A DNA stretch of 63,424 nt, counting the filler, from Stramenopiles sp. TOSAG23-2 (lineage: Eukaryota): the NCBI GenBank assembly GCA_900128395.1. It is 6 parts of 6 records of this genome, joined end to end, with 100 filler letters (N's around TTAATTAATTAA, not from the genome) between each part and the next. Parts side by side here need not be neighbours in the genome. Positions count along the whole stretch, not along the records: positions 28,423 to 56,626 come from LT649404.1; 5 more parts are not named here. The stretch is one strand, 5' to 3'. Numbering within the stretch: position 1 is the first letter of the stretch; each line of letters opens with the position of its first letter. A program made the translations under genes and the position numbers. The notes beneath the pieces are model-generated. The model made no database searches. It was not told the origin of the DNA and worked only from the letters and a program-made list of their open reading frames with translations. Positions 40,701-61,825 of the stretch are shown one piece after another.

Positions 40701-42725
40701 TAAAGTATGACTTTGTGAAGACTGTGAGCCCATATTCATCATCATGGTCATACTACTTTGTGAGCCACCAACAGAACCAAAATCATTTGCAAATGCTTTT
40801 TCAGTGGATGAAACTACACATAAGATGGCAACGCCGCCAACAATGCCAACTTTTTTAATATGTTGCACAGTACTTGCTAACATTTTTCGAATAATTATGG
40901 TTATTTCATCAATGCTACCACTCGCAGTACTAACTGTCCCATTGTAGGAAGATGGTAACGATAAACTAGTCAAAATATTAAACACACTACGTTGTTGCTC
41001 CGTGCTTAAATATTCAACATAATCCAATAAACCACGTATAAATGCAGTGAATTTTTTTAATCCTTTGCATAATTGAGCATCAATAACTAAACCTTCCATC
41101 GTTTTCAATGCACTTTGAATTTCATAGTTTACTCCAGATCCAATATGTGTAATCAAACTTCCTACGATTTCTTGGCGATGATAATCGCTTGAAAATTCAC
41201 TGAACATCGTTGCATAAAGGGATTCTCCAACAGCTCGTATATATTGCCCCGTTTTTGCACCAGTTCGTACATAAAAAAATGAAGATGCAACATCTAGAAA
41301 ATTACTAAATAATGGAGTGAGTGCTGTGGAATGCCCAGTTAATACACGTTTAATAAAATCGTTTGGCAAGCCATCAACCACAGACGCTTTTTTCTTCAAT
41401 AGCTTTTCAACATTACCTTGATATGATTTCGTACTATGCAATGAAACCAGCACCCATATATCAATTGTACAAAGTGGATTTAATTGAGTATTAACAGATG
41501 ATTGTTCTAAAAGTTTTAACCATTGAATGACCACATCTTGTCTATAGCGCAATGATGAGCGAAATGCTTCGAGTAATAACGATTCAGAGGAAGATCGTTC
41601 ATCACCATCTTGCACAATCATACCACGATTTGTATTGGTAATATCGATTAAGCGACTTAAATGTTTACGAATCATGTTTAAAATATTAGTAGTATTATCT
41701 TCATTGCATCCACTTATTAAAAAACGTAATATAATCGGTAAATCTTCGATGGATGAAGATGCAAGCATATTCAACACACGTTCAGTTGCTTCCTCTTTTT
41801 TTACATCTGATAAATACAAATTTGAAATTGAATCTAAAACGGAGACTGTTAAAGTTATTTCATTTTCCATAATTTCAAATAATTTTTCAACAACAGATTC
41901 TTGCTCGTCATCATCAATAATATCAGGTATCATAGCTATGATATCTCGTTGAGATTCAATTGGGCAAATGTCAAGGCATTCTAATAATTTATTAGCCAAT
42001 TGGCGATTATTATAAACATGTTCAATCCATTGAAGCTGAGATAGGATAATTTTTGTCATGTTTTTGCCGTTGTTGTTGTTGATACTATTATTGTTTTCAT
42101 CACCATCGCTTCCATCTCCATCCTCCCCAGCACAAATAACCATTGTCTCTAACAATACATCAATTAAATCTGTTTGTACCGTTTCAAACTTTAAAAGTGT
42201 TCGAAAAAGACTGTTTCCTCCATCAGTAAAGTCTTCGTATTTATCATTGCTGTTATTATTATCGCTACTATTGTCATCTTCCATGTCCTCAACAATCATT
42301 GCATCGTCATTGTTGTTGTTCATATTACCATCCTGTTTATGGTTTCCAATATATAATGGTTCGATAAAACATAATAAATTGGACGTTTCCATAGTTATAT
42401 ACTCACGTATTGATGATACAAATTGTTCACCTCGATCCAATGATTTTTTCAATAAACTTTCAATCTTTTGTTCCAATTCGTTAAGATTAGATTTAGTTGC
42501 AAAATGTTTCTTATTACTTTCATTTTTTAAAAATACAATTCCAGCTTTGCTAAGCAAATCAAGGCAAGGATTATTTTGATATTCTTCAGCTGAATCGCAT
42601 AATGGTGTTGTTGGTGTTTCTTTTCTAGTTGTTGTTGTTGTTGATGATGATGCTACTGGAGTATCAGGGATGTTACTATTATTTTGTGAATTTTCACTAC
42701 TATTTGCTTGTTGCGTTCCTGACAT
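37799..42725 (-). CDS. FANCD2: Fanconi anemia group D2 protein (split by a 1-nt frameshift at the G7 run 39840-39846)
   Basis: RQEIVGSLITHIGSG, IIRKMLAS (ubiquitinated Lys context), KVGIVGG, DACLGCPL and NWVREMLNSF in ORF 39825..42761. LQTSTRQVHNICSYGK and FWAGNLKQRNLDG in ORF 37799..39823. Confidence 0.92.
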
Positions 42726-44132
42726 GGTTGTCTGTTTGAAACTTATACGATGTGTCAGCACTTTCGTATTTCTCCTTTGTTATTTTTTTTTGTTTTTTAT
42801 AGATCTAGACACACTTTTTTTGTTTTCTGTTTGTGTACTTTTGTTTTCATTCAATTTTAAATATGTAAAATAACAGCCATTCTGGAGTTGCTCTGATTTA
42901 CTGATGATTTTTCCATTGTGCTATTCCCGCCTAAATACGACTATTACCTGTCGGACTACGTATATAATAGTCGTCTATTGTACAACAACAGGTGGTAGAC
43001 TCCTCGTAGACGACTGATATTCTACAGAACAGTACATATAGCTATTACACTATTTTATTCGAAGCAGTACGAAAAGCCAGAGAGAGAAGCTAAATCCAGG
43101 CTAACCACAGCCTACATATAGAAGCTATAACTCGATTTACGTTATATTCCCATCCACGTGTGGAGAAGCTATACTTAGTGTAAATCCCTTGTGTTCTTAC
43201 TATACAAAATAACATACTTAGAGATGTACCATCCATAAGTCCTAAAATATATATGAGTATGAAAATTAGTATATTGTACTCATACCTATATATAAGGTGT
43301 TTGTCAAAAAAAAGATGTGCGTGATTTTATTTTTGGATTTATTCGATAACTAAGAGTCTATAGTAGAGTAATCAATTAGGATAAAAAATAGCCGCAAAAT
43401 GGACAAATTAAAAATATCTACTAGCAGCCAAACTACTGTAGTAAACCGGATTTATTGAGGATAAAATTTAATATGATAATATCACTAGGGAAGAAAGTCA
43501 TGACCTTTTTTTTAGCATGAGGTATAGGCATATATATTGGTAGTCTTTTACTATACTATATTTTATGTTGGTAACACTCAACATGTTCCAAAAAATTGAA
43601 TAATAAAAGATATATATAAAGTTTAAACAACAAATAAATAGAATGTAAAATGTTTATACATAGCATACATAAAAACCCATAAGGACACTACTGAAAACAT
43701 CTAGAGGCATTTTATTAAACGTCTCTTACATACGTGCGTATCGTATAATTATAGATCCATTTATTTAGTTGTTATACGTAATTCTGTTGATAAATACAAT
43801 ATAAATATTGTATAAATCGCCTAAAAAACTAGTTGGTTTTATTATTTCATAAAGTAAAAAAGTAACATATTTTCATATAACTATAAAAAAATACACATAC
43901 GTATCAAAATTACATTTATTTGTTTGCCTAGGACACATTTGACATCCATTGACACATTTATTACGCCCACGCGTCTTATTTGGATAGGTGAAAAAATCAG
44001 TAGGTAAAAAAAGAAAAGAAATTTGACTAGTGATATTTACCTTCTAGTTTGTTTTATTTTAAGTAAATATTGGGTTCCTACCACATATAATAAAGACTTG
44101 TGGTGATATTAAGAAAGATAACATAAACGACG

Positions 44133-45134
44133 ATGAAATATATTGCGACATCCCTACTTTCCTTTTTTGCTGTCACATTAGCAATTAGTGATGCTTTGAC
44201 TACATGCGAAGAACCAGAGATTAGTACATTTACTATCAATTTATTGAATATCAATCCAACCATATTTGTCCCAGAAACAAATAGCAGAACTTGTACAAAC
44301 AAGAAAAGGATTGAAAAAAAAAAACCAAAGTCATTACAAGAGGAAATTAACAGTATAGAAGAAACTATCCGGCGTATCAATATGAAAGCAACAAATGCTA
44401 GGAAATATGTAGAAGACGGTTATAGTGATAAGATAAATAGATTATCAATCCTTGAAGGAAAAATTCAAAATGTATCTGTAAAACTGGAAAAAGCGAAAAA
44501 AAATAAGGATGCCACAAAATCCAGAACACTATACAATCAACTTGTAAAATATGTTAAAGAATTTGATACTATAGACAAAGTATGGCGTTCAGTTTTACGT
44601 TTGTCAAAATCATTGCCAATCTTCATTAAAAAAATCAAGACAGAAATTGATGAAGCATTTGATAATAATAACTATGATAAGGTGGATAAATTACAATTAA
44701 TACTTAAGAAGGGGGAAAATGTGTTGAAGAAAATAAATCAATGTGAAATATATTTTATGTGGCAGGATCGAAAAAAACATGGATTTTATGAAGACGATAG
44801 TTACAGGGATTATAAATTTTGTATTGATGGCAAATTTAAATCAAAAAGTGAAATGTTAGCTGCCCGTAATAATGGTTTTACCAACCGGAAAACGTACATG
44901 GCATTTTGGGAATTAGGGTTTTATAATTACAATGAGTTAGATGATTATAAATTTTATATTGATGGCAAATTTAAATCAAAAAGTGAAATGTTAGCTGCCC
45001 GTAATTATGGTTTTACCAACCGTGAAGAATATTTACCGCAGAAAAGAAGAGATGCAGCCGCCGTAGGGATTTTCGTAATCGTTATTTTATCTGTTTTTCT
45101 TATACATGGCATTATTAGATCATATGACTATTAA
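44133..45134 (+). CDS. Predicted type I membrane protein of the viral island (signal peptide, coiled coil, internal repeat, C-terminal TM)
   Basis: MKYIATSLLSFFAVTLAISDA signal. DYKF(C/Y)IDGKFKSKSEMLAARN(N/Y)GFTNR occurs twice (44808-44888 and 44943-45023). TM AAAVGIFVIVILSVFLIHGII. Confidence 0.75.
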   Translation: MKYIATSLLSFFAVTLAISDALTTCEEPEISTFTINLLNINPTIFVPETNSRTCTNKKRIEKKKPKSLQEEINSIEETIRRINMKATNARKYVEDGYSDKINRLSILEGKIQNVSVKLEKAKKNKDATKSRTLYNQLVKYVKEFDTIDKVWRSVLRLSKSLPIFIKKIKTEIDEAFDNNNYDKVDKLQLILKKGENVLKKINQCEIYFMWQDRKKHGFYEDDSYRDYKFCIDGKFKSKSEMLAARNNGFTNRKTYMAFWELGFYNYNELDDYKFYIDGKFKSKSEMLAARNYGFTNREEYLPQKRRDAAAVGIFVIVILSVFLIHGIIRSYDY

Positions 45135-45605
45135 TAGTATCAATCAGAAAATTAGCGAATTCTATAGATATGCAGGAGAGGATCCGTTAGATTTAGCATA
45201 TAACGTCGCCAATACAATTTGTCTTCCGTGTACCTACTCAAATGAAAAAGGAGATCATTGCACTCATACGTTCAGAAGGTGGAAAGGCATATTTGCATGA
45301 AGCAAACGGTTGGCATAAAAACTGGTTAGGGTGATTTAAATCGCTAAAATTATAATTAATGACCGATGTGTGTTATAAAAACGGTTACCATTAAAAAGGT
45401 ATGACTACTTCTTAAGTTTTAAGTTGTATCATTAAGCAATTGTACCATGATATTTTTTTGAAAATTTGGTTTGGAAAATCCAACCTCCCAATGATATATC
45501 CATTGTTTTTTTTGAATGCTATGTCCATGCTAATTTTGTCACGCGTAATCCGGAACATATCAATTTTTTGATAGTATAAATAGTCCCAATTTGGTTTTAT
45601 ATATT

Positions 45606-48600
45606 ATGAATCAAATATTCGAAAGTGACAAAATAAACAAAAACATACATGATGGCATCTTATACGAAAATGACGCTAACCTACGAGAAGCAGAAAAATC
45701 AATCTCAGCCTTACAAGAATGTGATAAACGGGACTTTATAAAGGCTAGATTGGCATTTATCAAATTATACCCAGTCCCGCTTGATTTCGTATCGTTTAAA
45801 GAATTAATATCATGTTTAGACGATGCATCTGATGAAAGGAATCCAATACATTGGTTGAACAAAATAGCTGATGGAGTTGCGGGTAAAAACGATTATGTAA
45901 ATTTATGTAATCGATTTAAACAAGCTGCTATATTGACGGGTGACATGTATGATAAAGGCGAATCATATCCGTTGAGCGAGAAGTATGAGAAGAAGCCACG
46001 AACAATACAATCAACAAACAGTCCGTATGATAAAAATTTAAAAAATACGAATTTATGGGCAGTAGATGCATATCAAAATCATGGAGCAAAACATTATTAT
46101 GTGGGTGACCCAGTATCTATGTACAATCATCTACAAGGCGATAAACATGCATATGAACATTTACAAACAACACATTGTCATTCTGGTGGCAATAAGTCGT
46201 GTAGATTTTATTTGGATATCGATGGAGATAATATAAAGGAAGAGATTGTATGGAAAGAAACTTTAAATCAAGTTTTCGAAAAATTATTTAAAGTATTTCA
46301 AAAAGAAGGAGTGCTACTATATCCTGAGATGATGGCTGTATTGAGTGCACACAATAAAGATATGGGTAAGATGTCGTACCATCTTCATTTTCCTATGGCA
46401 CCGGTGCTATTTGAAAGCATTGGTGGGATGGATAAGTTTATGAAGAAGTATAAAGCAGAATTAACTATTGGATTAGACGAGTACGGCTTATCGTCAGGTT
46501 CTATTCCTAAGATCGATATGTGTATTTACAATGATCGACCATTTAGGCTGGTAAATCAGAGCAAATGGAAAGAGAATCCCCGTGTATTGACTATTCGTAA
46601 TGGAAAACAAGATGAATTATCCTTTTTAATTTTCAATATGTTATTAATTCAGGGTGAGAAGTTGAATAATCAATATTACCTAAATGTGGAAAGCGAATCA
46701 ATAGTTGCTAGTTCGGTACGTAAACGGCGGAAGGTTAATCCAGCTGTACCGGAAACGATATACAATGATGAAATCCGCACTAAGGTAATAGAAATATTGA
46801 AAAAAGGGGACTACGAACGATTAAATAAAGTAACGTTTGGGGAATTGAGACGTATTAATGAGTTTTGTTATGCGCTAAAACTAGTATCTATGGGCAACTA
46901 TTGTCCGGTAGAGAATACAGAAAAAAAATGCATGCATCGAGCTGACATTAAAATCACCCCAAATAAGTGTACAATCGAATGCTTTGGTAACTGTGATCCA
47001 GTTGAATCCAATACTCCTTTAGAGATGAAGCATGTATTATTTCCTAATCTCCCTACAGATAAAGTATTGGTCTATTTTCAAGAAGGCGTTAGTATGTACG
47101 ATTTTTTAAAAGTAGATTCCTCTGCTAGTTTACAAGAAATAAAGAAAAAGATCAATGCTCAAAGGGGCAGCATTACATTATGGGTAACCTTACGGGCTGA
47201 GGCGGAACAATTTGAAACGAAAGTTGCATTTATTCAATCAAAAACAAATACAAAAACAGACAAAAAACATTTGGAGAAGGCGTGGGACGATACACAGCGC
47301 CCTAATTGGACTGAACGGAGAAGAAAGATAGATAATCGTTTAGACAGTTGTAGGTACATTGTTGGATCTATGAACCAAAATGATTTATACTCTATATTCA
47401 GAGTCTTAACACTTGAGTACCCAGACTCGTGGCAACATGTATGGAATGAATTGTCAATAAACCAATTATATGTTCGATATGTTTTATCAATCATAGAAGA
47501 TAAAGACTTTATTCGCATACACGAGACAGTATCTCAATGGAACGACAACAAAAAATGCTATGTGAAAGATTGGGCTAATGATGAAAATGATTTTACTCTG
47601 GATTCCTTTATCACTTGGATTAACAAGAAGAACGAAAAAATTAAAGGGGTATATGGAAGAATTCGAGACACAAATAAACTTAAAGATTTATTAAGAAATG
47701 AATGGAAAACCACGGTAATTAAAATGAGATATTACGGATTTATAAATGGTATTTATGACAGAGATACACGTATCTTCTATGCGTATGACAAATTCACTGC
47801 TATAGATTCAAGTAGAGTGAAAAAATACAATGGGCAAAAATTCATTTGTTATAAGTATTACAATAGGGAATTTGAACAAGCAGCTGACCCTGTTCAAATT
47901 GAAGGGTCTGAAAATCCGTTTGATAAAACGTTTCATGGTACTACAACTATTGTTGATATTATATTGGAATCACAAAAATTACCACCCTGTGATATTTTTT
48001 TAGTATATGCATGTATAGGTCGTTCTCTTTATCTATTAAAGGAAAAAGATGAAGCCAAATGTTGCTTCTACTTACTAGGTGAATCCAATACAGGCAAATC
48101 AATTATATTATATATCATTCAATTATTCCACAGAGAAGAGTATGTTGTTGTGTTTGCGGCTAAAGGACATCAGCGTTTTGGATTCGATTACGAAGGGTAT
48201 CATATAGCAATTCACCCTGAAGCGTATGAAACTAATATGGATTCTGAAAAATTTAAAACATTAGTCGAAGGCGGAAGAACAACTAAAGCTGTAGCATGTG
48301 TTGGTGATATCCAATATACTGTAAAGGCTTCTACAGTAATGGCAGGGAACCCTGAAGAAGACTCGACTAAAGATTTCAAATATATTAAAGATAATAAAAA
48401 CGGTGTCTCAAATCGATTGATAGTGGTTCCATTTGATCATAAAATCGACGAGCAGAGTAGGAAAGAGATGCTTCTAAAAAAATATCCTGATATAGAATTA
48501 ACGGCTTCAGAAGCGATGCTAAAAAGTATGTTTGATGAAACCAAATCATCTTGTAGACATCTTCCGATAATTCTAGAGAGAAGTCTTTATGCCTACAATT

Positions 48601-49205
48601 TATTTTGTGAGGAATTAAAGAAGAAATCTTACTGGTATGAGCTTCTTAACCCGCCTAGCATCATTTTACAGCGCCGGATGAGTAACGTATTAGATTTGAA
48701 AGGTTTCCTAAAGGAATGGTTCGATATCAATAAGAAAATGTCGGTTAATGAATTACGAGTTGTTAGGAAAAAGAAAGAAAAAATTGTAATACATGAAGCT
48801 GATGAAGAAAAATATGGACTCAGATATAGGGGTCATCCAGAATCCAATAAAAAATGTGATAGTATGTATTATGAGGATTTCATAGAAACGTATGAGCATT
48901 TTACCAAAAGTAAGCCTAAAAATAGCAAACTGGAAAGGTATTCATACAGTAATTTGGTCCATGTACTATTTGAAAACGATATTCTATTACGAAAGATTGA
49001 TTTCGGTGATTCAGTTAAAAAGGAAGAAGTCTACCTAACCCGTGGAAAAACAAGGGGGGAGGAAAGATTAAATTGGGTTTTGTTTGGTATTAAACCAAAA
49101 ATGACCAACCCTAACCATGGGAATCCTGAACCGAGAATAGAAAGAAAACAATATGGAAATTTGTGTTTATTAAAAAAAAATGGATTTTTGGTTGATAGGT
49201 CGTAA
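45606..49205 (+). CDS. PrimPol/AEP primase-polymerase fused to a D5-like superfamily 3 helicase
   Basis: AEP motifs HAYE, RFYLDID (DxD), KMSYHLHF (SxH) and IDMCIYNDRPFRL..QSK. Cys/His zinc-finger-like segment. D5-type GFINGIYD, Walker A GESNTGKS (48078-48101), IHPE, VMAGN and NRLIVVPF. Confidence 0.9.
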   Translation: MNQIFESDKINKNIHDGILYENDANLREAEKSISALQECDKRDFIKARLAFIKLYPVPLDFVSFKELISCLDDASDERNPIHWLNKIADGVAGKNDYVNLCNRFKQAAILTGDMYDKGESYPLSEKYEKKPRTIQSTNSPYDKNLKNTNLWAVDAYQNHGAKHYYVGDPVSMYNHLQGDKHAYEHLQTTHCHSGGNKSCRFYLDIDGDNIKEEIVWKETLNQVFEKLFKVFQKEGVLLYPEMMAVLSAHNKDMGKMSYHLHFPMAPVLFESIGGMDKFMKKYKAELTIGLDEYGLSSGSIPKIDMCIYNDRPFRLVNQSKWKENPRVLTIRNGKQDELSFLIFNMLLIQGEKLNNQYYLNVESESIVASSVRKRRKVNPAVPETIYNDEIRTKVIEILKKGDYERLNKVTFGELRRINEFCYALKLVSMGNYCPVENTEKKCMHRADIKITPNKCTIECFGNCDPVESNTPLEMKHVLFPNLPTDKVLVYFQEGVSMYDFLKVDSSASLQEIKKKINAQRGSITLWVTLRAEAEQFETKVAFIQSKTNTKTDKKHLEKAWDDTQRPNWTERRRKIDNRLDSCRYIVGSMNQNDLYSIFRVLTLEYPDSWQHVWNELSINQLYVRYVLSIIEDKDFIRIHETVSQWNDNKKCYVKDWANDENDFTLDSFITWINKKNEKIKGVYGRIRDTNKLKDLLRNEWKTTVIKMRYYGFINGIYDRDTRIFYAYDKFTAIDSSRVKKYNGQKFICYKYYNREFEQAADPVQIEGSENPFDKTFHGTTTIVDIILESQKLPPCDIFLVYACIGRSLYLLKEKDEAKCCFYLLGESNTGKSIILYIIQLFHREEYVVVFAAKGHQRFGFDYEGYHIAIHPEAYETNMDSEKFKTLVEGGRTTKAVACVGDIQYTVKASTVMAGNPEEDSTKDFKYIKDNKNGVSNRLIVVPFDHKIDEQSRKEMLLKKYPDIELTASEAMLKSMFDETKSSCRHLPIILERSLYAYNLFCEELKKKSYWYELLNPPSIILQRRMSNVLDLKGFLKEWFDINKKMSVNELRVVRKKKEKIVIHEADEEKYGLRYRGHPESNKKCDSMYYEDFIETYEHFTKSKPKNSKLERYSYSNLVHVLFENDILLRKIDFGDSVKKEEVYLTRGKTRGEERLNWVLFGIKPKMTNPNHGNPEPRIERKQYGNLCLLKKNGFLVDRS

Positions 49206-49218
49206 ATGCTTTTTTATG

Positions 49219-49592
49219 TTATGTGAAGAATTTTCTGGGGTGTGACAAAAAAACCTTCACACGATCACACGGATTTATGTGAAGATGTGAAGAATTTTCT
49301 GGGGTGTCGTAAAAAACCTTCACACAATCACACGGATTTATGTGAAGATGTGAAGATAATTTCAGGTGTTGACAAAAAAACCTTCACACGATCACACGGA
49401 TTTATGTGAAGATGTGAAGAATTTTCTGGGGTGTCGTAAAAAACCTTCACACAATCACACGGATTTATGTGAAGATGTGAAGATAATTTCAGGTGTTGAC
49501 AAAAAAACCTTCACACGATCACACGGATTTATGTGAAGATGTGAAGAATTTTCTGAAAAACCTTCACACGGTCACACGGGTTTATGTGAAGA
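49219..49592. repeat. Tandem array of six ~63/64-bp units (alternating A/B, 127-bp higher-order repeat); candidate replication origin
   Basis: CCTTCACAC recurs at 49254, 49317, 49381, 49444, 49508 and 49561 (periods 63, 64, 63, 64, 53). Each unit has TGTGAAG and its inverse CTTCACA. Confidence 0.95.
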
Positions 49593-49640
49593 TAAATGTA
49601 AAATGTTGTATAAATATTTAAGTTCTGATACATAGAGGGT

Positions 49641-50102
49641 ATGGAATCACTGAAACATTTTATAACATCAGGTAGAAGTGCTCCTCAATGTGGAATTACA
49701 CAACAGAAAATAGATGTCCTAAGAGGGTACAAGACTGTTACGGTAGGTGGTAAGACTTACGAAACATCAGAAATCTTGAACCGGGTTCATTCATGCGACG
49801 ATTGCAATAAATTAAAATTGAAGATAAAGGCACTAGAGCTACAATTAGAGAAATACGCTGCTCCCCCAGTTGAGTCAGTACAAACAATCCTAGAAGATTT
49901 CTTTAAATCAAATTATGTACGTGTGGGAAGTAGGAGATACTCCAGACGAGATTTTTTTAATGAAGTGGTGTCGTATATGCGACAGCATGATATTATTATT
50001 CTTACACCGAAGGACGAACGTTATAAGCTTTTCTTGAGAAACACTGTGGGTGATAGTAGTAACAATTACAAGCGCCTGAAAATTACCAAATCAAATATTT
50101 GA
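49641..50102 (+). CDS. Viral-island hypothetical protein (153 aa; CxxC, coiled coil, basic C-terminus)
   Basis: ATG-initiated ORF ~30 nt downstream of GTATAAATA; HSCDDC motif. Confidence 0.7.
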   Translation: MESLKHFITSGRSAPQCGITQQKIDVLRGYKTVTVGGKTYETSEILNRVHSCDDCNKLKLKIKALELQLEKYAAPPVESVQTILEDFFKSNYVRVGSRRYSRRDFFNEVVSYMRQHDIIILTPKDERYKLFLRNTVGDSSNNYKRLKITKSNI

Positions 50103-50154
50103 TGAAACAAGATAATATATATATATATATATATATCATTACAATTAATAAAAC

Positions 50155-50391
50155 ATGGTTGTTGGCGACGCATACATTGATATTCAAGGTTTTATTTACA
50201 TTGAAAAACGAGGTTTTAGGGTAAAACCTGACAAAATAATTTGGTGTCACGCCAGAAGAAGATACGATTATTTTAAATTTAAAAAAGGTAAACTGACATT
50301 AATCCCATTTGAGAAAGTTCACCCGAAGTTTTTTTTCTGGGACTGTAGATCCAATCTTAATAAAGAATTTGTACATCCCCATAACTTGTAG
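50155..50391 (+). CDS. Viral-island small hypothetical protein (78 aa)
   Basis: ATG ORF with AAAC context, after a (TA)n tract, in a tightly packed cluster. Confidence 0.55.
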   Translation: MVVGDAYIDIQGFIYIEKRGFRVKPDKIIWCHARRRYDYFKFKKGKLTLIPFEKVHPKFFFWDCRSNLNKEFVHPHNL

Positions 50392-50505
50392 GTGTATGGA
50401 TTGTGTGTGTACTGTAGATCTTTAACAAACATCTGGGTTATTATAACCGGACCAGATAAAATTTTATTTTATAAAATTAAATTATCTTATATTTTTTAAA
50501 GTTGT

Positions 50506-50970
50506 TTAAGAAAATTCATATGGTTTCTCGCTAGTACTAATAGCTCTGGGTGGAGGCTTTAGTTTTGAAGCTAAATTAATCTTATGGGCACTAAGTCTCA
50601 TCCATGTACTACAAGCGGTCGAGTTTAACCCATTCTTATTCTTCATTTTTCTTAATAATACATCCTGCATTTCTTTAACTAGACGAATATCTTGTGAAAT
50701 GATCCTCCGAAGATTGAGAGTATGCGATTCGTAGTGAATTTGGAAATCTATAAAATTTATGTCTATATATTCTAAATTCTGATCTTTTAACGTTTTATTA
50801 CGATGTTTAAATGCCTCATACATGGTTTTATACATGTTTACTTTCGAAGTACTAGATGCCAACGCTTCCTGTAGCTGTACTAAATATGCATCATTATTAT
50901 ATTTGCATAGGACACACTCTTTACACCCTACTTCTTCCTCCAATACGCTCTCATCCAGATTTAGATCCAT
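50506..50970 (-). CDS. Viral-island hypothetical protein with an N-terminal Cys cluster (154 aa)
   Basis: ATG ORF; CKECVLC plus HYESH, possibly Zn-binding. Confidence 0.7.
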   Translation of the reverse strand: MDLNLDESVLEEEVGCKECVLCKYNNDAYLVQLQEALASSTSKVNMYKTMYEAFKHRNKTLKDQNLEYIDINFIDFQIHYESHTLNLRRIISQDIRLVKEMQDVLLRKMKNKNGLNSTACSTWMRLSAHKINLASKLKPPPRAISTSEKPYEFS

Positions 50971-51020
50971 TTATAATTAGAAATGTTATTGTATATATAT
51001 GTTCAAATTTTTGAAGTAAA

Positions 51021-51257
51021 ATGAAGTACGGGACTTTAGCTATTACATTCAACCCTTCCAACATACAGAAAGATTGGTTACTATCTAGATATCCCAGCAT
51101 ACGTGAATATTTTACAAACACGACTTATGAAATCCTAGGGCAATTTGATATCCAGCAGACTGTACACTATGATTCTGTGCCTACCTATTTATTAGAAAAT
51201 ACGAAAAAAAAATTACAAATGTCAGATTTTCAATTTGAAATGTATATATATGAATAA
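51021..51257 (+). CDS. Viral-island small hypothetical protein (78 aa)
   Basis: ATG ORF 30 nt after GTATATATA, divergent from 50970. Confidence 0.55.
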   Translation: MKYGTLAITFNPSNIQKDWLLSRYPSIREYFTNTTYEILGQFDIQQTVHYDSVPTYLLENTKKKLQMSDFQFEMYIYE

Positions 51258-51274
51258 TAATGTATATATATAAT

Positions 51275-51511
51275 ATGAACCTAATAGTTCATTTTCCATT
51301 CGGTGTTGTAAACGAAGAAAAATTGATGAAACAAATAGGAGCCGAGGGGTACGATGGCTGGGAATATACATTAGCACCTAAAGCGGTTACAAAACGACTG
51401 TACTGGTACAACTTAGATAAAAATAAAATAAGATATGCCGCATATGTGCTGGAGAAGGAAGAACATGTGAAGTATAAAATCACACATAAATATAATTGGA
51501 ATTTTGACTGA
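51275..51511 (+). CDS. Viral-island small hypothetical protein (~78 aa)
   Basis: ORF 51260..51511; likely start MNLIV at 51275 after TATATA. Confidence 0.55.
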   Translation: MNLIVHFPFGVVNEEKLMKQIGAEGYDGWEYTLAPKAVTKRLYWYNLDKNKIRYAAYVLEKEEHVKYKITHKYNWNFD

Positions 51512-51572
51512 CCCTTATTTTGACAAGAGAAAAAAGAAGGTATATATATGCCCATATAGTTACATATATTCA

Positions 51573-51905
51573 ATGAAAATTACAGAGAAACAAAACGAGC
51601 TCCTAGAAAATGTATGTATCGGCTTTAACTTTAAAAATGCAAATGATAAAGTAACGAAAATAAATAGAGGTGACGCGGAAGAAGCCACCGAAATAATAAA
51701 GTCATTGAGAAAAGAAATATTAAATCATTATCCCTACGATTATGTTTTGAAACTTAAGACGGGTGAAATTAGTCCTAAAGCCAACCTCACAATCTTACGT
51801 CAGATGCTTAGGTTGCACGGAAGACGTTTAGTTAGTAAGAGAGAGTACGTCTGGGATAAAAGAAATAAAAAAACTGTGAGTAAATATACTTATAATTTAT
51901 TGTAA
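51573..51905 (+). CDS. Viral-island small basic protein (~110 aa)
   Basis: First ATG at 51573, after GTATATATA. Basic LTILRQMLRLHGRRLVSKREY segment. Confidence 0.65.
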   Translation: MKITEKQNELLENVCIGFNFKNANDKVTKINRGDAEEATEIIKSLRKEILNHYPYDYVLKLKTGEISPKANLTILRQMLRLHGRRLVSKREYVWDKRNKKTVSKYTYNLL

Positions 51906-51994
51906 TATTTTAAATATTTGATGGAAACCCAATTATCATAATTATAACAATATTCTTATACATTATTATAAAATCATAGACACTTATTATATAT

Positions 51995-52471
51995 TTAAAA
52001 CTTACTCCCGTACATGGCTTCTGCCTGTCTTCTCCCGTACATGGCTACTGCCTGTCTCCTATCTTCAATCATCAAATCACCGAAGTAGAAACCATGTGAA
52101 TCGTCATGTATCATGAATAGACAATTTTTTAAATTGAATGTCTTATACCTAAACCCCTCTTCGAAAAACCCCCAGATTATGTTTCTATCCACATAACAGT
52201 TATAATAAACAATTGCGCTAATTATCCATGTATAAAAATTTCTTTTTATATTCGTTGTCTCCGGAAGGTTACTAATTTGGAAAGGATTTATGTACAACCC
52301 ACCAACAGTCCCGGTATATCCGAATATAGGATCATCTGGTTTTTTATAAGCTTTAATTAGCTCTTTAAATTCTTTCATATACGGATATGATGGCACTAAA
52401 TGGATGCTTACATAGTTATTCACAACTTCTGGAATTTTTACAAAATTTCTATTTATGAAATTTCTTAACAT
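51995..52471 (-). CDS. Viral-island hypothetical protein (~158 aa)
   Basis: First ATG at 52471. The C-terminus has a short tandem duplication RRQAVAMYG/RRQAEAMYG. Confidence 0.6.
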   Translation of the reverse strand: MLRNFINRNFVKIPEVVNNYVSIHLVPSYPYMKEFKELIKAYKKPDDPIFGYTGTVGGLYINPFQISNLPETTNIKRNFYTWIISAIVYYNCYVDRNIIWGFFEEGFRYKTFNLKNCLFMIHDDSHGFYFGDLMIEDRRQAVAMYGRRQAEAMYGSKF

Positions 52472-52556
52472 TTTATATAAAATTTGTTTGCTTATATACT
52501 CCTCAAAAATTTGAGTAGTGGATTTTAAAAAAAGAAATAAAATATTATGCGTCACT

Positions 52557-52739
52557 ATGTATTCAATTCCACCCCACTATAAATATGCCAACTGGTTTAT
52601 GATGATGAAAAACGTTTATGAAAAAGCTTTACAAAATTATATCAAATTGATAATGGATGATAAATCACCACCTAAAATACACCATTTAAAACAGTTATTA
52701 CTCTTGAATCAAAAGAATTACATTTTCAGTAAGTTATAA
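52557..52739 (+). CDS. Viral-island small hypothetical protein (~60 aa)
   Basis: ATG at 52557; ends convergent with the large recombinase gene, 11 nt apart. Confidence 0.4.
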   Translation: MYSIPPHYKYANWFMMMKNVYEKALQNYIKLIMDDKSPPKIHHLKQLLLLNQKNYIFSKL

Positions 52740-52750
52740 TGTATTATTTA

Positions 52751-55700
52751 CTATAGTCTTCGTTTTTTATTACTACCATTATTATCTTCTTTCTTTCGTT
52801 TTAAACACCTTGTAACACAATCACATACACTGCTACCGTGTTTCTTATCCCATATTTGTCCTGCTTTTTTCATTACTTCGTCATATCGCTTTCTTACCGC
52901 TATATGTAAATCTGAGGGATTTGAAATTTTAGTTTCTAAGTCATCTAAAACTTCATATACCTTCCAAACACTCTGTAAATAGAAAATCTGCATTGCCCTT
53001 TCATGCGCATTTAATCTGGACATATCAGATAATCTCGGTTTCAATTCACCTTCTGTTATAGTCGCTGGAATAAATTTATCAGGAATAGATTGCCTAGTAG
53101 GTCTTATTGTTGGGTGCGATGCCATACGTTCTGCCATAATCTGTAATTCCTCATTAGATAACACAGATTTTCCTATTATTAATTGTGAAAAATCATGCAA
53201 CGCGTCTGATTTACAAGGTTTATAGGAATTAATTGCAATTCGTTCAGTGGTATGATCCGCTGCCTCCATTATTCTTTCTTTTTGGTATTTCACTTCTCTT
53301 ACCACATCTGGAACAGACCTCAGTTCCGTCTGTAACAAATTTAATGCTGCCAATTTCAATTGATCTGATCCGTACCTACCCAGATGTTTAAACGATATAC
53401 TGCACTCCTTAGACATTGTTTTTAATTGCTCTGATATCGGAAATTTATATTTAAATTTGACTTCTCCACCAAAATATTTCTTATCCAATATAATCTCGTT
53501 CTCTATGTTTTTTAAAATGTAATTTAAAATATCGTATGACTTCATTATGCTGTCTCCACTTGATTTCACCACAGAGAATGGAGTGTATGCTGCCGTCTGT
53601 GCTTCTGGTGCGTGTTTCATGGGTAACAATTTCTCTTGTATTTCTCTACCATCCACAATAATAGATACTTTCTTGTCTGTGAGACTCTCGATATACTTAT
53701 TATTGGTCCATTTGTTTATATGCTTTTTTTTTAGATCCATTGGAATCATATCTTCTATATCACCTTTAAGATAAACCTCTGTCGCATCCGTTGGTATTCC
53801 TCTCACAGTCATATATGACCTATTACCATTCTCATAAAACGGGTAGATGAGAGGAAAAGTATGACATTTGACCATACGATTGTACCCAGAGTATTCGCTT
53901 AATGATGGACTGAAATTACTAATGTAATACCTAGGTTCATAATTGTTGTGTTTTACCCGGTGTCCCGTTAATTGTTCATACGCCCATACAATATCATCCA
54001 GTAATGGATACAAATATTTATACTTCTGTAGTTGAGACCCCTCCAAATCAATATTACGTCCATTCGTGTGTGCATTTTTGTGGTGTTTTACATATATGCG
54101 ATAGTAACCATCATGCACAATGATGTGTAGTCCATGTGTCAACATTGTCATGTCTTGTATATCAAATCTTTTCTTGAATTCGATTTCTGAGATAATATAT
54201 ATCTTCTTTAATAAAGGTTGTCTGCATTTTAGTTCATACGACAATACTGCCGTCAATAATACAGATATGTACCTCGCACGTACATTTCCTCTAAGTTGTT
54301 GACGTATATTCATAAACATATCCATTATTTCATCACATTGACTCCCAATAATGGTCGGATCGTCTCCATATATAGATTTGGTTGCCTTTTCTTTACTAAA
54401 AACCTTCGCCACCACTGATGCAGAGATATATAATCTCACCCACGTTACTGCCTTCTTATTGTGTAACATGAATTTGACAAATTGTTCCCATGATGTTATT
54501 GTCACAGGTAGATGTGCTCGCAGGTGCCAGAATGGGATTAATGGATAATAAGTATTTGGGTTGCCAAAATTGCCTCTAAAGTTAGTCTCATTGTATTTTT
54601 TTAATGTCAGATCTACATCGCGAGTAACATTAAGTGCTATACCTGTGGTTTGAATCATCTCATTGAATTCTGTCTGAGATGGTACTGAATATCCTTTAAC
54701 AATCTGCGCGATTTCCTCTTTTAATCGTTTCAATTTGCACTTAGACTCCTTCGCGCTACCCCCATACAGTGGTTGACAGTTTTTCCGTCGGTTACCCCTG
54801 AATTTGCGAACGCCCATAATCATGTGACATTCCTCTATAATGCCATTTGTGCATTTTTTTCTTGTGCTATATGCTAAAATTTTTAATGCATTTGCAATAT
54901 TTTTTGCGATCGTAGATATAGACTCTCCGTGAATTAATGTCTCCTCTATTTTGAAACCGTAACCATCTCCTTCTGCCTCTAATATACGATCAACAGTTAC
55001 ATTCTTGATATGTGCATAATATTGTGTCATTAGGGATGCAATAGTACGTTTATTATCCTCTAATCTGATTGGATAAAAAGATTTATTTGCGTTTTTGACG
55101 TATTTCATAATTCCTTTCGGTAAGAATGGTTGTTTTTCGTTTGCCATCCTTACAAAATTTTTACTACCTCTGTAATTATCTAATAACTCACGTTCATTTC
55201 GTTGTGAATAACGAGATAATACCCATATAAATTTCTCTTCTTTTCGAGGATTCAATATACATGCACGTAACGCAGTTTGCACCTCCTTTCTTGTGCTCTG
55301 TTTGACTCTATAGTCAGTTTTTTTCATGTGATTCAGTATAATTTCCAAGTGTTGCAAGTCCCAAATTTTCAAGGTTTTTATGCTCTTATTAAAATGTGGG
55401 TCATTTTGAATAAGTAATTCACGCATTCTTTTTCTCACAATATTGTAATGCTCTTTCTCATCCCTACGTTGTGTATAACACTCTAACATACGTGCATTCT
55501 GTTCGATGACTGCATTAACTTCTTTACTGATTCCGTATAAAGATATATATGCATGTTTGCCGTCAAAATATATGCAGTTATTTGGTCTACCAACCAATTC
55601 TTCTTTTTGGATACATATCGCACCTTCTTCATTCGTGTCTTCGATTTTAACCGGGTTAAATTTATTAAAGTTTCGTACTAGGAACATCGGTAATTTTTTT

Positions 55701-56026
55701 GTGTATGGTAATTTCTTTTTGTTTGTGTACTGTATGTGTCCTCTTTGTGCATGTGTAAGTGTGCACGTCCGTCTCGGAGGTCTTGTGTGCGTATTTATTA
55801 ATTGTAATTGTTCCGCTTGTGAAAGATTTTTGAAAATTTTCAAAATGTCCTCACTACTGATAGTGTTAAGATTAGGGTTTTGAAGATGCACTCGCGAATT
55901 TTCACTAACAATTTCTGTTTTGACATAATTTGAGGTATTTTCTGATAGATTTTCGGGTTCATCAATCTTTATTTGGTTACTGAGTGTGTTTGAAGTATAA
56001 TTATATTGTTTATTTTCCAGAATCAT
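52751..56026 (-). CDS. Large putative tyrosine recombinase/integrase
   Basis: Catalytic motifs in the expected order: R in LSYELKCRQ (54221-54223), K in YVKHHKNAHTNG (54077-54079), HxxR = HLGR (53375-53386), H...Y = DHTTERIAINSY (53222-53254). First ATG at 56026. Confidence 0.68.
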   Translation of the reverse strand: MILENKQYNYTSNTLSNQIKIDEPENLSENTSNYVKTEIVSENSRVHLQNPNLNTISSEDILKIFKNLSQAEQLQLINTHTRPPRRTCTLTHAQRGHIQYTNKKKLPYTKKLPMFLVRNFNKFNPVKIEDTNEEGAICIQKEELVGRPNNCIYFDGKHAYISLYGISKEVNAVIEQNARMLECYTQRRDEKEHYNIVRKRMRELLIQNDPHFNKSIKTLKIWDLQHLEIILNHMKKTDYRVKQSTRKEVQTALRACILNPRKEEKFIWVLSRYSQRNERELLDNYRGSKNFVRMANEKQPFLPKGIMKYVKNANKSFYPIRLEDNKRTIASLMTQYYAHIKNVTVDRILEAEGDGYGFKIEETLIHGESISTIAKNIANALKILAYSTRKKCTNGIIEECHMIMGVRKFRGNRRKNCQPLYGGSAKESKCKLKRLKEEIAQIVKGYSVPSQTEFNEMIQTTGIALNVTRDVDLTLKKYNETNFRGNFGNPNTYYPLIPFWHLRAHLPVTITSWEQFVKFMLHNKKAVTWVRLYISASVVAKVFSKEKATKSIYGDDPTIIGSQCDEIMDMFMNIRQQLRGNVRARYISVLLTAVLSYELKCRQPLLKKIYIISEIEFKKRFDIQDMTMLTHGLHIIVHDGYYRIYVKHHKNAHTNGRNIDLEGSQLQKYKYLYPLLDDIVWAYEQLTGHRVKHNNYEPRYYISNFSPSLSEYSGYNRMVKCHTFPLIYPFYENGNRSYMTVRGIPTDATEVYLKGDIEDMIPMDLKKKHINKWTNNKYIESLTDKKVSIIVDGREIQEKLLPMKHAPEAQTAAYTPFSVVKSSGDSIMKSYDILNYILKNIENEIILDKKYFGGEVKFKYKFPISEQLKTMSKECSISFKHLGRYGSDQLKLAALNLLQTELRSVPDVVREVKYQKERIMEAADHTTERIAINSYKPCKSDALHDFSQLIIGKSVLSNEELQIMAERMASHPTIRPTRQSIPDKFIPATITEGELKPRLSDMSRLNAHERAMQIFYLQSVWKVYEVLDDLETKISNPSDLHIAVRKRYDEVMKKAGQIWDKKHGSSVCDCVTRCLKRKKEDNNGSNKKRRL

Positions 56027-56626
56027 TATTTTTTGACTTTTTTTGTTTTCGACATTTTTCACTATATGCGGATATTTTCTGAAGTTTGTCCCCAAAATAT
56101 CACAATAGGAATACTGGATTCTGATTGGCTGAAAACTAAATTACTATAACACACAGTTTGGCGCTCTTTTCTTGTCAACTATAAATATTACTATATAAAT
56201 ATAATCAATGATAGCATGTATTTTAGTGACACTACAGAAATAGTATATAATCACCGAATGTTAAAAATATTTAAGGACTCTAAATTTGTGTACAATTTTT
56301 TTCATGGGAGATGAAAACATTTCTTAAAATTCTAATACCAAGGAAATAGTATGGAAATATAAAAAGTTTTAAGAAATGTTAAATGAATATTTTGGATCAT
56401 TTTACTCTATCATAAGAATACCATTAATTTTTCTGATAGCTCTACCACAGCATCTGTGTCCAAAACGATCACATCAGACGCGTGCTGTCCAGCTGTGTGG
56501 CGCCAACAGAGAAGAGAAGAAGAGTTGCAAGAGATGGGATTTTTATGGTGGAAATTCTTCAAACCATACCAAATATATATATATATATATATTAGAGATT
56601 CATATAATTGGGGGGGGGGGGAATTT

Positions 56627-56726
56627 NNNNNNNNNNNNNNNNNNNNNNNNNNNNNNNNNNNNNNNNNNNNTTAATTAATTAANNNNNNNNNNNNNNNNNN
56701 NNNNNNNNNNNNNNNNNNNNNNNNNN
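56627..56726. other. Assembly gap with TTAATTAATTAA linker
   Basis: N44-linker-N44. Confidence 0.99.
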
Positions 56727-57444
56727 ATCCTATAGGGCCCAACCAGTCAAGAGCAGAACTTTCACCTAAATCTGTCCCTATAGTTTTCAATGTATCATCC
56801 ACTAGGTCATCAGCAACATCACCAGTTACATCACCCGTTTCGCCTGTTACATCACCCGTAGCATCTGTTTCTCCCTGGGTTTCTTCAGTAGCATTTGATG
56901 TTTGTAACCGTCTCGCACTTGTCTCAGGGTCTTGTTCAACGCTTCTAGTAAATGGCGAGGAATTGGTATCTTCAAAATCACCTCCGTATGGAGTTCTGCT
57001 TTCTGTCATTTCCACATCTCCACTACTACTTGGGGGTTCTTGCTCTTCCACAGGGGATTGTGTTTCATCTTCTTGAACAGGTTGCTCTTCGTTCGCTGTG
57101 TCATCTGCTTGATTGTCTTGATTGGCTTTGTATTCATTGTATTTCTTTTTTACAAAATTAACACTTTTTTTCAAGTTCGCGTATCCTTTCTTGACATTGG
57201 GGAAGCCTTGAATCATTTCTTTAGCTCCCAATCCGCCACCAATTCCGCCTTCAAGGAACTCGCGTGCACTGGATTCTAATCCACTAGCTTTGCTTTGCAG
57301 TTGTGCTACTTTACTTGCTCGTTTGTATTCCATTCCTGACCTTACAGCTGCCAATCGTTCCGCCCGTTGGTTAATAATAGAATTCAGCTCGCTATTATAA
57401 CCACCAAGATCTGTTTGGTATTCGTATGGGTTGTTCATATACAT
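56727..57444 (-). CDS. Viral-island hypothetical protein, acidic/Gly-rich, truncated at the gap (possible virion protein)
   Basis: ATG 10 nt after the ATPase stop. Helical N-terminus, GGIGGGLG, acidic linker with TGD[VA] repeats; runs into the gap at LDWLGPIG. Confidence 0.7.
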
Positions 57445-57454
57445 ATAACCAACA

Positions 57455-58258
57455 TTATTTTTCTTCGTCGTCCTTGACACTATCTTCTTCTAAATCGCTA
57501 TTTTCTTCGCTTACATCTTTGGAAGAACTTGGGTAAATTTGTTCGGTGAAATTCTTATACGCTCGTCCAGTATCGAGTTGCAAGTAAAGCCACGCATATT
57601 CTTCTTGAGCACAATAATTGAACATTTTCATAAAGTTACTGTTGCCGCCATACGCATCCGCATACTCGTCCATCAAGGCATTCAGTTCACGCTTGTTCTT
57701 GATGTTGGTGCTTATCAAAACTCCTGTGGCATTTGCGCGAATTAACGGAGACATTTCCATAAATTTTTGCGTGCTTAATATGACCATACACGGATCTCCA
57801 GGCTCAACATAATGTCTAAATCTACAACAATGGAAAGCAATTTTATTATTCTTGCGTCCCATTTTCGAAGTTTGCCCCAAGAAATCGTCCAACACAATCA
57901 AGTAGCTAGTATCTTCTTTGTTGTCTATCTTTTCAAGCTGCCGTTTCACCACACCATCTATAATTTCATCGCTGTATTCAGTATGGCAATTGCCTTTGTA
58001 TTTTTCATATAAAAAGCGACTGGTCTGGTCATTTTGGATGGTGGGACTGATAATCGTGACATTATCGAACATATCGTTGTAAAATGAATTGCGTAAAATT
58101 AATGTATTCAACAAGGTTGATTTTCCAGACCGTATCGCACCTACCACGATCAACAATTGACCCTTATACACATCAGGAATGCTTTCAGGAAGCTCCTTCA
58201 TTTTTTTTGATTTCTTTATTTCGGGTGGCTTGACAGGTAAGATGTCTAAACTGTTCAT
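57455..58258 (-). CDS. A32-like (FtsK-HerA) viral DNA-packaging ATPase
   Basis: Walker A GAIRSGKST, IISPT, Walker B LIVLDDF, RHY, ILSTQ and IRAN. Size (~267 aa) and motif order match Polinton/PLV/virophage packaging ATPases. Confidence 0.92.
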   Translation of the reverse strand: MNSLDILPVKPPEIKKSKKMKELPESIPDVYKGQLLIVVGAIRSGKSTLLNTLILRNSFYNDMFDNVTIISPTIQNDQTSRFLYEKYKGNCHTEYSDEIIDGVVKRQLEKIDNKEDTSYLIVLDDFLGQTSKMGRKNNKIAFHCCRFRHYVEPGDPCMVILSTQKFMEMSPLIRANATGVLISTNIKNKRELNALMDEYADAYGGNSNFMKMFNYCAQEEYAWLYLQLDTGRAYKNFTEQIYPSSSKDVSEENSDLEEDSVKDDEEK

Positions 58259-58326
58259 ATTACAAATTGCAAAGATTAAAAATAGTCGTCCCACACGCTT
58301 TTCTCAGGTTGTTTCTTGACTATTTT

Positions 58327-58426
58327 NNNNNNNNNNNNNNNNNNNNNNNNNNNNNNNNNNNNNNNNNNNNTTAATTAATTAANNNNNNNNNNNNNNNNNN
58401 NNNNNNNNNNNNNNNNNNNNNNNNNN
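58327..58426. other. Assembly gap with TTAATTAATTAA linker
   Basis: N44-linker-N44. Confidence 0.99.
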
Positions 58427-59611
58427 GATACCATACCAATCTTTCGTCGCACCAACGGAGGTATCTTCTGTCCAGGTCGCAGCAGCAGTCGTTGATGCTT
58501 GTGTTGTGGTTGTTGTCGTTGGTGATTGTGTTGTGGTAGTTGTGGCTGTGAGTAATGGGTTGTGGTAAAAGGTGACGTAGCCTTGTGTTGCCCCAACCAC
58601 GACTGTGTCTCCATCAACTGCCACAGATGCCCCAAATTTACTACTGGCTGTTTCCCCCTCGAATTTGGCCAGTAAAGACCACCCAGATGTGTTGTGTTGG
58701 TAGATGGCAGTGTAGCCTTGTTCGGAGTCCCAAAGTTCGGCACCGACAACGGTCACGTTCCCACTGATCCCTACAGAAGTCCCAATCCTGTCACCCGTTT
58801 CCCCTACAAATTTAACCGTCTTAAACCACCCGGAGGCATTGCGTTGGTAGACCGTAGCGCTGCCTCTATTAGAGTCTGATGTATTAGTACCAATAATAGC
58901 CGTATCGCGATCGACCGCCACAGAACTCCCAACCCGATCACTGTTTATTTCCCCCTCGATCTTGGTAAATTCAAACCACCCAGAGGTGTTGCGTTGGTAG
59001 ATGGTGGCGTAGCCTCGGGCGGAGTTACATTCATTGGCGCCGACCATTACCGTGTCTCCATTGACCGCCACGGAATACCCAAACCGACAGCTAACGGCTT
59101 CCCCTTCAAACTGGGCTGATTCAAACCATCCTGAGGCGTTGCGTTGGTAGATGGTGGCGTATCCTTGGTCTGAGTTCCATTTGTAGGCACCGAACACGGC
59201 CGTGTCCCCATCGATTGCTGCGGACGAACCAAAGAAGCTGCCGGATTTCCCAGTGAAATTGGCGGATTCAAACCACCCACTGGTGTTGCGAGCATAGATG
59301 GTGGCGTATCCTTGGTTGGAGTTCCAAGACCTAGCACCAACCACGGCTGTGTCCCCGTCGACCGCAACGGAACTCCCAAACTGACTGTCGGTTTTCCCTG
59401 TTAACTCAGCAGATTTAAACCATCCAGAGGCGTTGCGGTTGTAGATCGTGGGGGGATACCCAACTATGATCGTGTCTCCATCGATCGCGACACAATACCC
59501 GAAATGCGATGTTTTCGTGACCTTTTCCACTTCCGTCCAAGTGGACCATCCAGACTCAAGGAGCATCAACAGCAGCAAAATTGAGAATAGTGTTTTTTTT
59601 AAAATATTCAT
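58427..59611 (-). CDS. Secreted FG-GAP-repeat beta-propeller protein with a Thr-rich stalk (truncated at the gap)
   Basis: Signal peptide. Seven repeats of FGxSVA[VI]xGDTxxVGA...G.ATIYxRNxSGW, then a mucin-like TTTTTQSPTTTTT. Confidence 0.88.
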
Positions 59612-60026: not shown

Positions 60027-60126
60027 NNNNNNNNNNNNNNNNNNNNNNNNNNNNNNNNNNNNNNNNNNNNTTAATTAATTAANNNNNNNNNNNNNNNNNN
60101 NNNNNNNNNNNNNNNNNNNNNNNNNN
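60027..60126. other. Assembly gap with TTAATTAATTAA linker
   Basis: N44-linker-N44. Confidence 0.99.
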
Positions 60127-61725: not shown

Positions 61726-61825
61726 NNNNNNNNNNNNNNNNNNNNNNNNNNNNNNNNNNNNNNNNNNNNTTAATTAATTAANNNNNNNNNNNNNNNNNNN
61801 NNNNNNNNNNNNNNNNNNNNNNNNN
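61726..61825. other. Assembly gap with TTAATTAATTAA linker
   Basis: N44-linker-N44. Confidence 0.99.

Follow-up and report, generated by a model that had tools for sequence, protein, structure and literature searches.

A putative iteron-type origin array beside a primase-helicase gene in a probable integrative element of Stramenopiles sp. TOSAG23-2

Genomic setting and boundaries of the insert

The DNA examined here, referred to as the window, is a stretch of 63,424 bases from Stramenopiles sp. TOSAG23-2. It is made up of six joined contigs separated by N-linkers with a fixed 12-letter spacer (28323-28422, 56627-56726, 58327-58426, 60027-60126, and 61726-61825), and thus genes on opposite sides of a linker are not neighbours. 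The repeat array that concerns us resides in the contig at 28423-56626, the left part of which carries the eukaryotic genes FANCD2, ankyrin/RGS/WW and MORN, while a block of orphan-like genes between 43104 and 56451 forms an insert of 13.3 kb (Table 1). The host FANCD2 (37799-42761, minus strand) is covered by two consecutive ORFs, each with a FancD2 match, which probably reflects an intron or a frame break. Near the contig start, a 103-bp tandem duplication with 99% identity between copies was found at the end of the MORN-repeat gene (28888-29098), possibly an assembly slip. Concerning the other contigs, one carries a GC-richer gene for an FG-GAP repeat protein with a 147-bp repeat (58427-59611, minus strand), and a separate contig of 1.6 kb carries an orphan ORF (56727-57448, minus strand) together with a P-loop ATPase ORF (57455-58294, minus strand), which has a weak FtsK match and resembles the packaging ATPases of Polinton-like viruses (PLVs) and virophages. 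The latter was rejected as part of the element, since it lies on a different contig beyond an N-linker; capsid-bearing elements may be present in the same genome bin.

Table 1. Features of the insert, with positions counted along the window.
Feature	Position	Strand	Basis or remark
Left junction, 8-bp direct repeat ACCACAGC, putative attL core	43104..43111	+	Same word at 56444-56451
333-aa ORF, cargo	44133..45134	+	ORF call; hydrophobic N- and C-ends; 135-bp internal repeat
AEP-type primase and D5/SF3 helicase fusion, 1199 aa	45606..49205	+	Profile and fold matches
C-terminal domain of the primase-helicase, candidate winged helix	about residues 1028-1192	+	Weak call
Leading half-unit	49219..49253	+	One 8-mer, then A/B hybrid linker
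Repeat array, six cores, putative iteron origin	49254..49592	.	Multi-copy also in runs X7 and X3
48-bp tail, 77% A+T	49593..49640	.	Between array and 153-aa ORF
Conserved 153-aa ORF	49641..50102	+	Six homologues at 82-92%
Small ORFs of 154 aa (-), 78, 83 and 110 aa (+), and 158 aa (-)	50506..52471	mixed	ORF call
Tyrosine-recombinase-like ORF, 1091 aa, putative integrase	52751..56026	-	Adjoins right junction
Right junction, second copy of ACCACAGC, putative attR core	56444..56451	+	Direct repeat

The word repeated at the two junctions is weak evidence when taken alone, as the two end zones share 24 8-mer pairs. In addition, one contig of the seawater run X5 follows the host DNA up to position 43080 and then picks up at 56446, so that 13,365 bases are skipped; 21 other letters join the two positions, and the short side, being 25 letters long, is fallible. 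Judging from this alignment, the environmental contig looks like an empty site. Given that both of its sides land at the 8-bp repeat, the short one over 25 letters, the insert boundaries are regarded as probable. The left junction is also crossed by one contig of the probable source run, leading from host DNA into the 333-aa ORF. The 25 longest of the 230 inverted pairs detected included no terminal inverted repeats of the insert, and self-BLAST returned no end-to-end match beyond AT runs. The junction word begins with ACC, and the phaeovirus recombinases of the type suggested by Atlas features are described as inserting at a CC dinucleotide (PMC13236599), a fit that may be taken as a weak hint. 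On the 13,342-bp circle that would arise from joining the ends, the array would sit almost directly across from the junction, at distances of 6.3 and 7.0 kb, which may be chance.

The initial annotation had proposed a viral origin. Our analysis recognised no capsid or packaging gene in the insert, and the word viral is therefore too strong. The sole Walker A motif in open frames of at least 60 aa in the insert is that of the helicase, and no more than three open frames are longer than 200 aa (the helicase, the recombinase-like and the 333-aa ORF). The insert thus lacks a packaging ATPase and is unlikely to carry a capsid gene. Pfam and PHROG searches of the insert ORFs gave no match to capsid families. 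The giant-virus early promoter motif occurs at 0.30 per kb in the insert versus 0.22 elsewhere, i.e. it is not enriched, and it is absent from the 60 nt preceding each of the nine ORFs examined.

Genes surrounding the array

The gene upstream of the array encodes a primase-helicase, as had been proposed from the sequence at the outset, and its helicase identity is firm. The N-terminal part matches Pfam PPL4 (E 9e-4), while the middle part matches PHROG 1156 (E 2e-5) and the phage/plasmid primase-helicase family TIGR01613 (E 1e-5, below its cut-off); a profile match to SaPI5 PriRep was obtained at E 6e-12. In a model of residues 631-1199 (pLDDT 72.6), the best solved match to the predicted fold was again SaPI5 PriRep (7ola; Z 17.0, rmsd 4.2, 289 residues aligned), with ASFV PrimPol and poxvirus D5 next, and among predicted viral structures the giant-virus D5-like proteins matched. 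Among 1.84 billion representatives 76 relatives were found, mostly across the helicase domain; 39 of the 42 matches scanned were distant or close relatives, most distant ones with DUF5906 or D5_N.

The last ~170 residues of this protein may form a winged helix. Three fold alignments cover the C-terminal part, reaching residue 781 of vaccinia D5 and residues 914 and 916 of ASFV PrimPol at an rmsd of 7-10. Against a profile of D5-like tails the C-terminal part scored 18.6, above all 60 column shuffles; in a second test the HMM score (2.3) fell within shuffles. The hhalign probability was 3%. No Pfam match to a winged helix was found in this part.

The 153-aa ORF downstream of the array is conserved, and one of its homologues lies on a contig of 10,610 letters, the same size as the contig of a helicase homologue. 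Atlas features lead from it to Pox_D5-bearing clusters at 0.84-0.87, below the bar of 0.9. Its model is of low confidence (pLDDT 59.5, best Z 5.0) and has no match among viral structures at E 0.001; its score against D5 tails is within shuffles, and profile comparison detected no similarity to the helicase family. The protein is a candidate second binder of the array. For the small ORFs that follow, a Pfam search with an E limit of 10 gave no match.

The 1091-aa ORF at the right end is a probable tyrosine recombinase. Atlas features place it at 0.92-0.93 near EsV-1-213-like, Phage_integrase (13% of members) and ResT clusters, all ten named matches falling within one family or clan, and EsV-1 ORF 213 has been described as a tyrosine recombinase (PMC2373305). 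A candidate catalytic series, H881-x-x-R884, H925 and Y935, was chosen by eye. Searches of Pfam, NCBIfam and PDB sequences returned no recombinase match, and a homologue search recovered its own near-copy alone. At the left end, the 333-aa ORF carries a putative signal peptide and membrane anchor, read by eye. The internal 135-bp repeat of this ORF (44781-45022) has two copies in the window and four in the EukProt model P0081, which fuses the 333-aa ORF to the helicase; the source-run piece over the repeat has twice the depth of the left flank, and hence the repeat is probably collapsed in the window.

Anatomy and copy number of the array

The initial description of a six-unit array was substantiated. 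Six cores start at 49254, 49317, 49381, 49444, 49508, and 49561, with core-to-core spacings of 63, 64, 63, 64, and 53, and end at 49592. A 30-nt core pattern allowing up to three mismatches finds six matches in the window, all in this single cluster, versus a chance mean of 0.01 (at least six matches in 0 of 100 shuffles), so that no core lies dispersed elsewhere in the 63,424 bases. The position given for the array, about 14 nt after the helicase stop, is also accurate: the helicase ORF, stop codon included, extends to 49205, and 49221 is the first base of the first 8-mer. The core of about 45 bp proposed earlier fits units 1-5, but not unit 6, which is degenerate, with two substitutions and the last 8-mer missing. 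Similarly, the reported alternation of two linkers holds for linker A after units 1 and 3 and linker B after units 2 and 4, but not for the leading half-unit, whose linker is a hybrid, or for unit 5, whose linker is truncated. Tandem Repeats Finder reported 49221-49555 with a period of 127, 2.6 copies and 97% matches. Since the G/A variant of the core tracks the preceding linker, what is really repeated is a dimer of 127 bp.

The inverted site pairs noted earlier were confirmed and could be refined to an 8-mer, RTGTGAWS, which occurs in 23 copies within 435 bp versus 0.17 expected, and in 24 copies in the other 63 kb. In a full unit, a non-palindromic spacer of 6 bp separates a tandem pair of 8-mers on the minus strand from a tandem pair on the plus strand, and a linker with T- and A-tracts follows, so that in each unit the two tandem pairs have opposite orientations and point away from the spacer. 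The 8-mers follow one another in steps of 8, 14, 8, and then 33 or 34 bp. Arms and spacer together are palindromic at 26 of 38 positions, in an arm-spacer-arm layout, while the spacer is palindromic in none of the six units. The suggested period of about six helical turns stands: if one turn is taken as 10.5 bp, spacings of 63 and 64 bp span 6.0 and 6.1 turns. With 62% A+T, the array is less A+T-rich than the element (68%), and a central A+T-rich gap is absent; the tail that follows the array could be a melting region or the promoter of the next gene. A scan for sigma-70 promoters and terminators remained at chance level. A CRISPR-like array was considered and rejected because the linkers repeat and do not vary. 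A presumed likeness to the phage P4 origin was given no evidential weight.

Regarding copy number, the array contigs of the probable source run have depths of 49.9 and 32.5, a ratio of 1.54 compared with the 1.5 expected from the assembled 3:2 k-mer multiplicity. The flank depths in that run (31 and 55) are compatible with an array of four units too, and thus four to six units fit the data.

The array in related elements

Part of the region 45600-52700 is present in 20 of the 21 listed runs, from 12 studies, and four of the 21 were aligned in detail. One relative comes from run X7, which belongs to another study than the probable source, and is about 93% identical. One X7 contig spans the helicase gene at about 95% identity and enters the array by way of a B-type linker; the depth of an A-type piece of 70 bp is 2.8 times that of the flanks, and a third contig exits the array and runs through the small genes to 52532, beyond which it is unlike the window. 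The X7 array is therefore multi-copy and lies between the same two genes as here; the absence from related elements that might have spoken against the initial proposal was thus not observed. In the poly(A) run X3 the same A-type variant was found at three times the flank depth, with one contig missing a unit.

The segment 51168-52532 is common to the window and the X7 relative. Adjacent to it, 50617-51167 (551 bp) is replaced by 564 other letters in X7, a swap of small genes within the shared module. The 333-aa ORF is not shared with X7 (depth at most 0.3 there), and the relative also appears to lack this recombinase gene. Since missing cover in contig data is weak evidence, non-coverage of the recombinase gene was counted solely together with the loose end at 52532. 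These contigs indicate that the array moves with the helicase and the small genes and not with the 333-aa gene or the recombinase. The order of A and B linkers seems to differ in X7, so that strict alternation is apparently not conserved and probably reflects duplication history rather than function.

Among the pieces listed, and in their best-matching registers, 3 of 145 array bases differ between X7 and the window (2.1%), compared with 192 of 3595 (5.3%) and 88 of 1084 (8.1%) in the flanks. The difference has a Fisher p of 0.047 against the pooled flanks and is not significant against the helicase gene alone (p 0.09); as the test rests on listed pieces and best registers, the lower divergence of the array is suggestive. 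The conservation is seen across one close lineage. Searches for the flanking DNA of relatives gave no match in viral contigs, metagenome contigs, prokaryote genomes or phages; they required near-exact words, so that absence from these sets is not implied.

Proposed function of the array

The array, its anatomy, the identity of the adjoining gene and the linkage of both in a relative were directly observed. We consider it moderately likely, by analogy with SaPI/PICI elements, that the array is an iteron origin bound by the C-terminal domain of the helicase within a 13.3-kb integrative element. In SaPI/PICI elements the origin directly follows rep on its 3' side and consists of opposed iteron sets, to which the C-terminal winged helix of Rep binds (PMC6092414; PMC9371898). 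In the SaPI5 origin complex, 62 bp with three tandem iterons and an inverted one are contacted by four C-terminal domains, and melting is proposed to start at short A/T tracts that separate inverted iterons (bioRxiv 10.64898/2026.10.17.759575). Here four sites recur per 63/64 bp and A/T-tract linkers separate the inverted pairs. In position and anatomy the array matches these experimentally defined origins. Furthermore, the array accompanies the helicase while both flanking cargo genes differ in X7, which counts in favour of an origin. So do the best solved match of the protein by profile as well as fold, SaPI5 PriRep, and the suggestive lower divergence of the array in X7. Counting against it are the lack of a central A+T-rich gap between two iteron sets and the weakness of the winged-helix call.

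As for the mechanism, we infer that the recombinase-like protein would excise the element between the two 8-bp repeats, giving a circle of about 13,342 bp. A hexamer of the primase-helicase would then bind the 8-bp sites through its C-terminal domains, perhaps with one four-site unit of 63/64 bp per hexamer. The A/T-tract linkers or the A+T-rich tail would melt, and the protein would load itself and prime synthesis, with extension by a polymerase of the host or of a helper virus, or by the AEP domain itself. The pRN1 replicon, too, has its origin directly behind the 3' end of a gene with AEP, SF3 and winged-helix domains (PMC4234260). It has been argued, however, that pRN1 and phage BIP-1, with the same domain layout, use a stem-loop and not iterons (for pRN1, PMC4234260), and for PLV primase-helicases the use of terminal repeats has been proposed (PMC11296320).

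A broader proposal regards the insert as a complete satellite, lacking a capsid, of a large DNA virus infecting protists, i.e. a eukaryotic counterpart of PICI/SaPI, which would integrate through a phaeovirus-like tyrosine recombinase, form a 13.3-kb circle, replicate from the internal iteron origin by its own self-loading primase-helicase and travel in helper particles. We hold this to be possible but doubtful. If it were true, the array would be a defined and testable binding site for a eukaryotic D5-type helicase.

Alternative explanations

A protein-binding array with a regulatory or maintenance role other than that of an origin is rather unlikely. It could be an enhancer or operator of the 153-aa gene, or a site for partition or packaging, and its binder could be the 153-aa protein or some other small protein. 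The location of the array, 48 bp upstream of a conserved ORF that Atlas features connect to Pox_D5-type domains, is consistent with such a role, and the baculovirus hrs, with three to eight 64-bp palindrome-bearing units, function both as enhancers and as origins (PMC4535591). The low-confidence model of the 153-aa protein and its score against D5 tails, both reported above, argue against this view, as does the site hard against the helicase stop, which is the position of the origin in the PICIs described. Regulatory and origin roles are mutually compatible.

It is unlikely that the array is a neutral minisatellite that expanded through slippage or unequal exchange and has no function. Its nested history, with a 63-bp unit followed by a 127-bp dimer, and its frayed ends would be expected of such a repeat; the make-up of the units differs in relatives, one RNA contig misses a unit, and transpovirons carry an internal tandem repeat to which the cited account assigns no role (PMC11788076). 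Against this, the four sites of a unit stand in a fixed, inverted order that recurs at whole helical turns, and in the X7 relative the array has diverged less than its coding flanks.

It is quite improbable that the recombinase of the element uses the array for recombination or resolution; recombinase sites were already mentioned in the initial annotation. Such sites would be either of core type, with 16-bp arms and the 6-bp spacer, or of the kind used by telomere resolvases. The arm-spacer-arm layout and its degree of palindromy suit this idea, ResT is among the Atlas look-alikes of the 1091-aa ORF, and an internal telRL-like site is described in phaeoviruses (PMC13236599). That site, however, is centred on a 6-bp palindrome (PMC13236599), whereas the spacer here is palindromic in no unit. 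The putative junctions lie 6.3 and 7.0 kb away and have a different word, and X7 keeps the array although it turns unlike at 52532, before the recombinase gene. Moreover, deletions would tend to occur between six core sites in direct orientation.

The other alternative of the initial annotation, a structured 3' UTR, processing signal or small RNA, is very improbable. The poly(A) library contains array pieces at about three times the flank depth and the folding z is about -2.8; inverted 8-mers yield such a z anyway, however, and contigs from an RNA library are not proof of transcription. There were no Rfam matches at E up to 1, and the ensemble is poorly defined (centroid -35 versus -104 kcal/mol). 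Finally, an artefact of assembly or amplification is hardly credible: contigs break at the array in both DNA runs with listed pieces there (X1 and X7) and the exact copy number lies between four and six, but the array is multi-copy, with its own variants, in two runs from other studies (X7 and X3), and the depth ratio agrees with expectation, so that the array is not simply the assembly expansion considered earlier.

Comparison with known systems

Several known replicons share parts of this organisation. The archaeal plasmid pRN1 (ORF904) has the same series of AEP, SF3 helicase and winged helix (a weak call here) and an origin just 3' of the gene, while its origin differs in being one 100-nt stem-loop without iterons (PMC4234260). 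The hrs of the baculovirus SpltNPVII consist of tandem units of about 64 bp, three to eight in number, each with an imperfect palindrome, and both origin and enhancer activity have been shown for them (PMC4535591). The likeness is one of layout alone: hrs occupy several loci per genome, compared with one here, and no baculovirus genes are present. Repeats beside D5-like helicases have also been noted at entomopoxvirus ends.

Transpovirons, too, are described as capsid-less; besides a helicase and small proteins they encode a probable membrane protein, and they contain a tandem repeat in their interior (PMC11788076). They differ in size (about 7 kb, compared with 13.3 kb here) and in being linear episomes with terminal inverted repeats instead of having chromosomal direct-repeat junctions (PMC11788076). 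The present element also has its own primase and a recombinase-like gene. The helicase of transpovirons belongs to another superfamily.

Polinton-like viruses combine a primase-helicase with a tyrosine recombinase (a probable one here), integrate in protist genomes and exchange modules in a mosaic manner (PMC10120064; PMC11296320). In contrast to them (PMC10120064; PMC12220804), the element described here has no packaging ATPase, recognisable capsid gene or terminal inverted repeats, and its candidate origin is internal, whereas terminal repeats have been proposed for PLVs (PMC11296320). In the cited account, origins of PLV-type primase-helicase replicons are hypothesised only (PMC11296320). 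The array offers a concrete 8-bp site, a four-site unit of 63/64 bp and two candidate binders, testable with purified protein. In the literature consulted, which takes in few subscription journals, we found no capsid-less element of a protist that combines a recombinase and a primase-helicase with an internal iteron array. The element itself, as a possible PICI-like satellite of eukaryotes, is a more novel object than the array. Surveys that start from capsid genes, such as that of PMC10120064, would miss it, and it may therefore indicate overlooked capsid-less integrative replicons in marine protists.

The closest likeness is to the pri-rep-ori region of SaPI/PICI elements, especially that of SaPI5 with PriRep5. 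Both have a primase fused to an SF3 helicase, short repeats of either orientation directly behind the 3' end of its gene and four sites per about 62-64 bp, as well as a recombinase-like gene and direct-repeat junctions (both probable here) and no recognisable capsid. In contrast to SaPI/PICI elements, which are phage-satellite islands of bacteria, the present one resides in a eukaryotic host, and its 23 sites are arranged in periodic tandem units, whereas 6-12 iterons surround a central A+T-rich gap in the former. Here, moreover, no repressor switch is seen and the recombinase resembles, by Atlas features, phaeovirus EsV-1-213. Since the host is eukaryotic and the central A+T-rich gap is lacking, the element is not a PICI, yet by analogy its replication module would appear to work like that of one.
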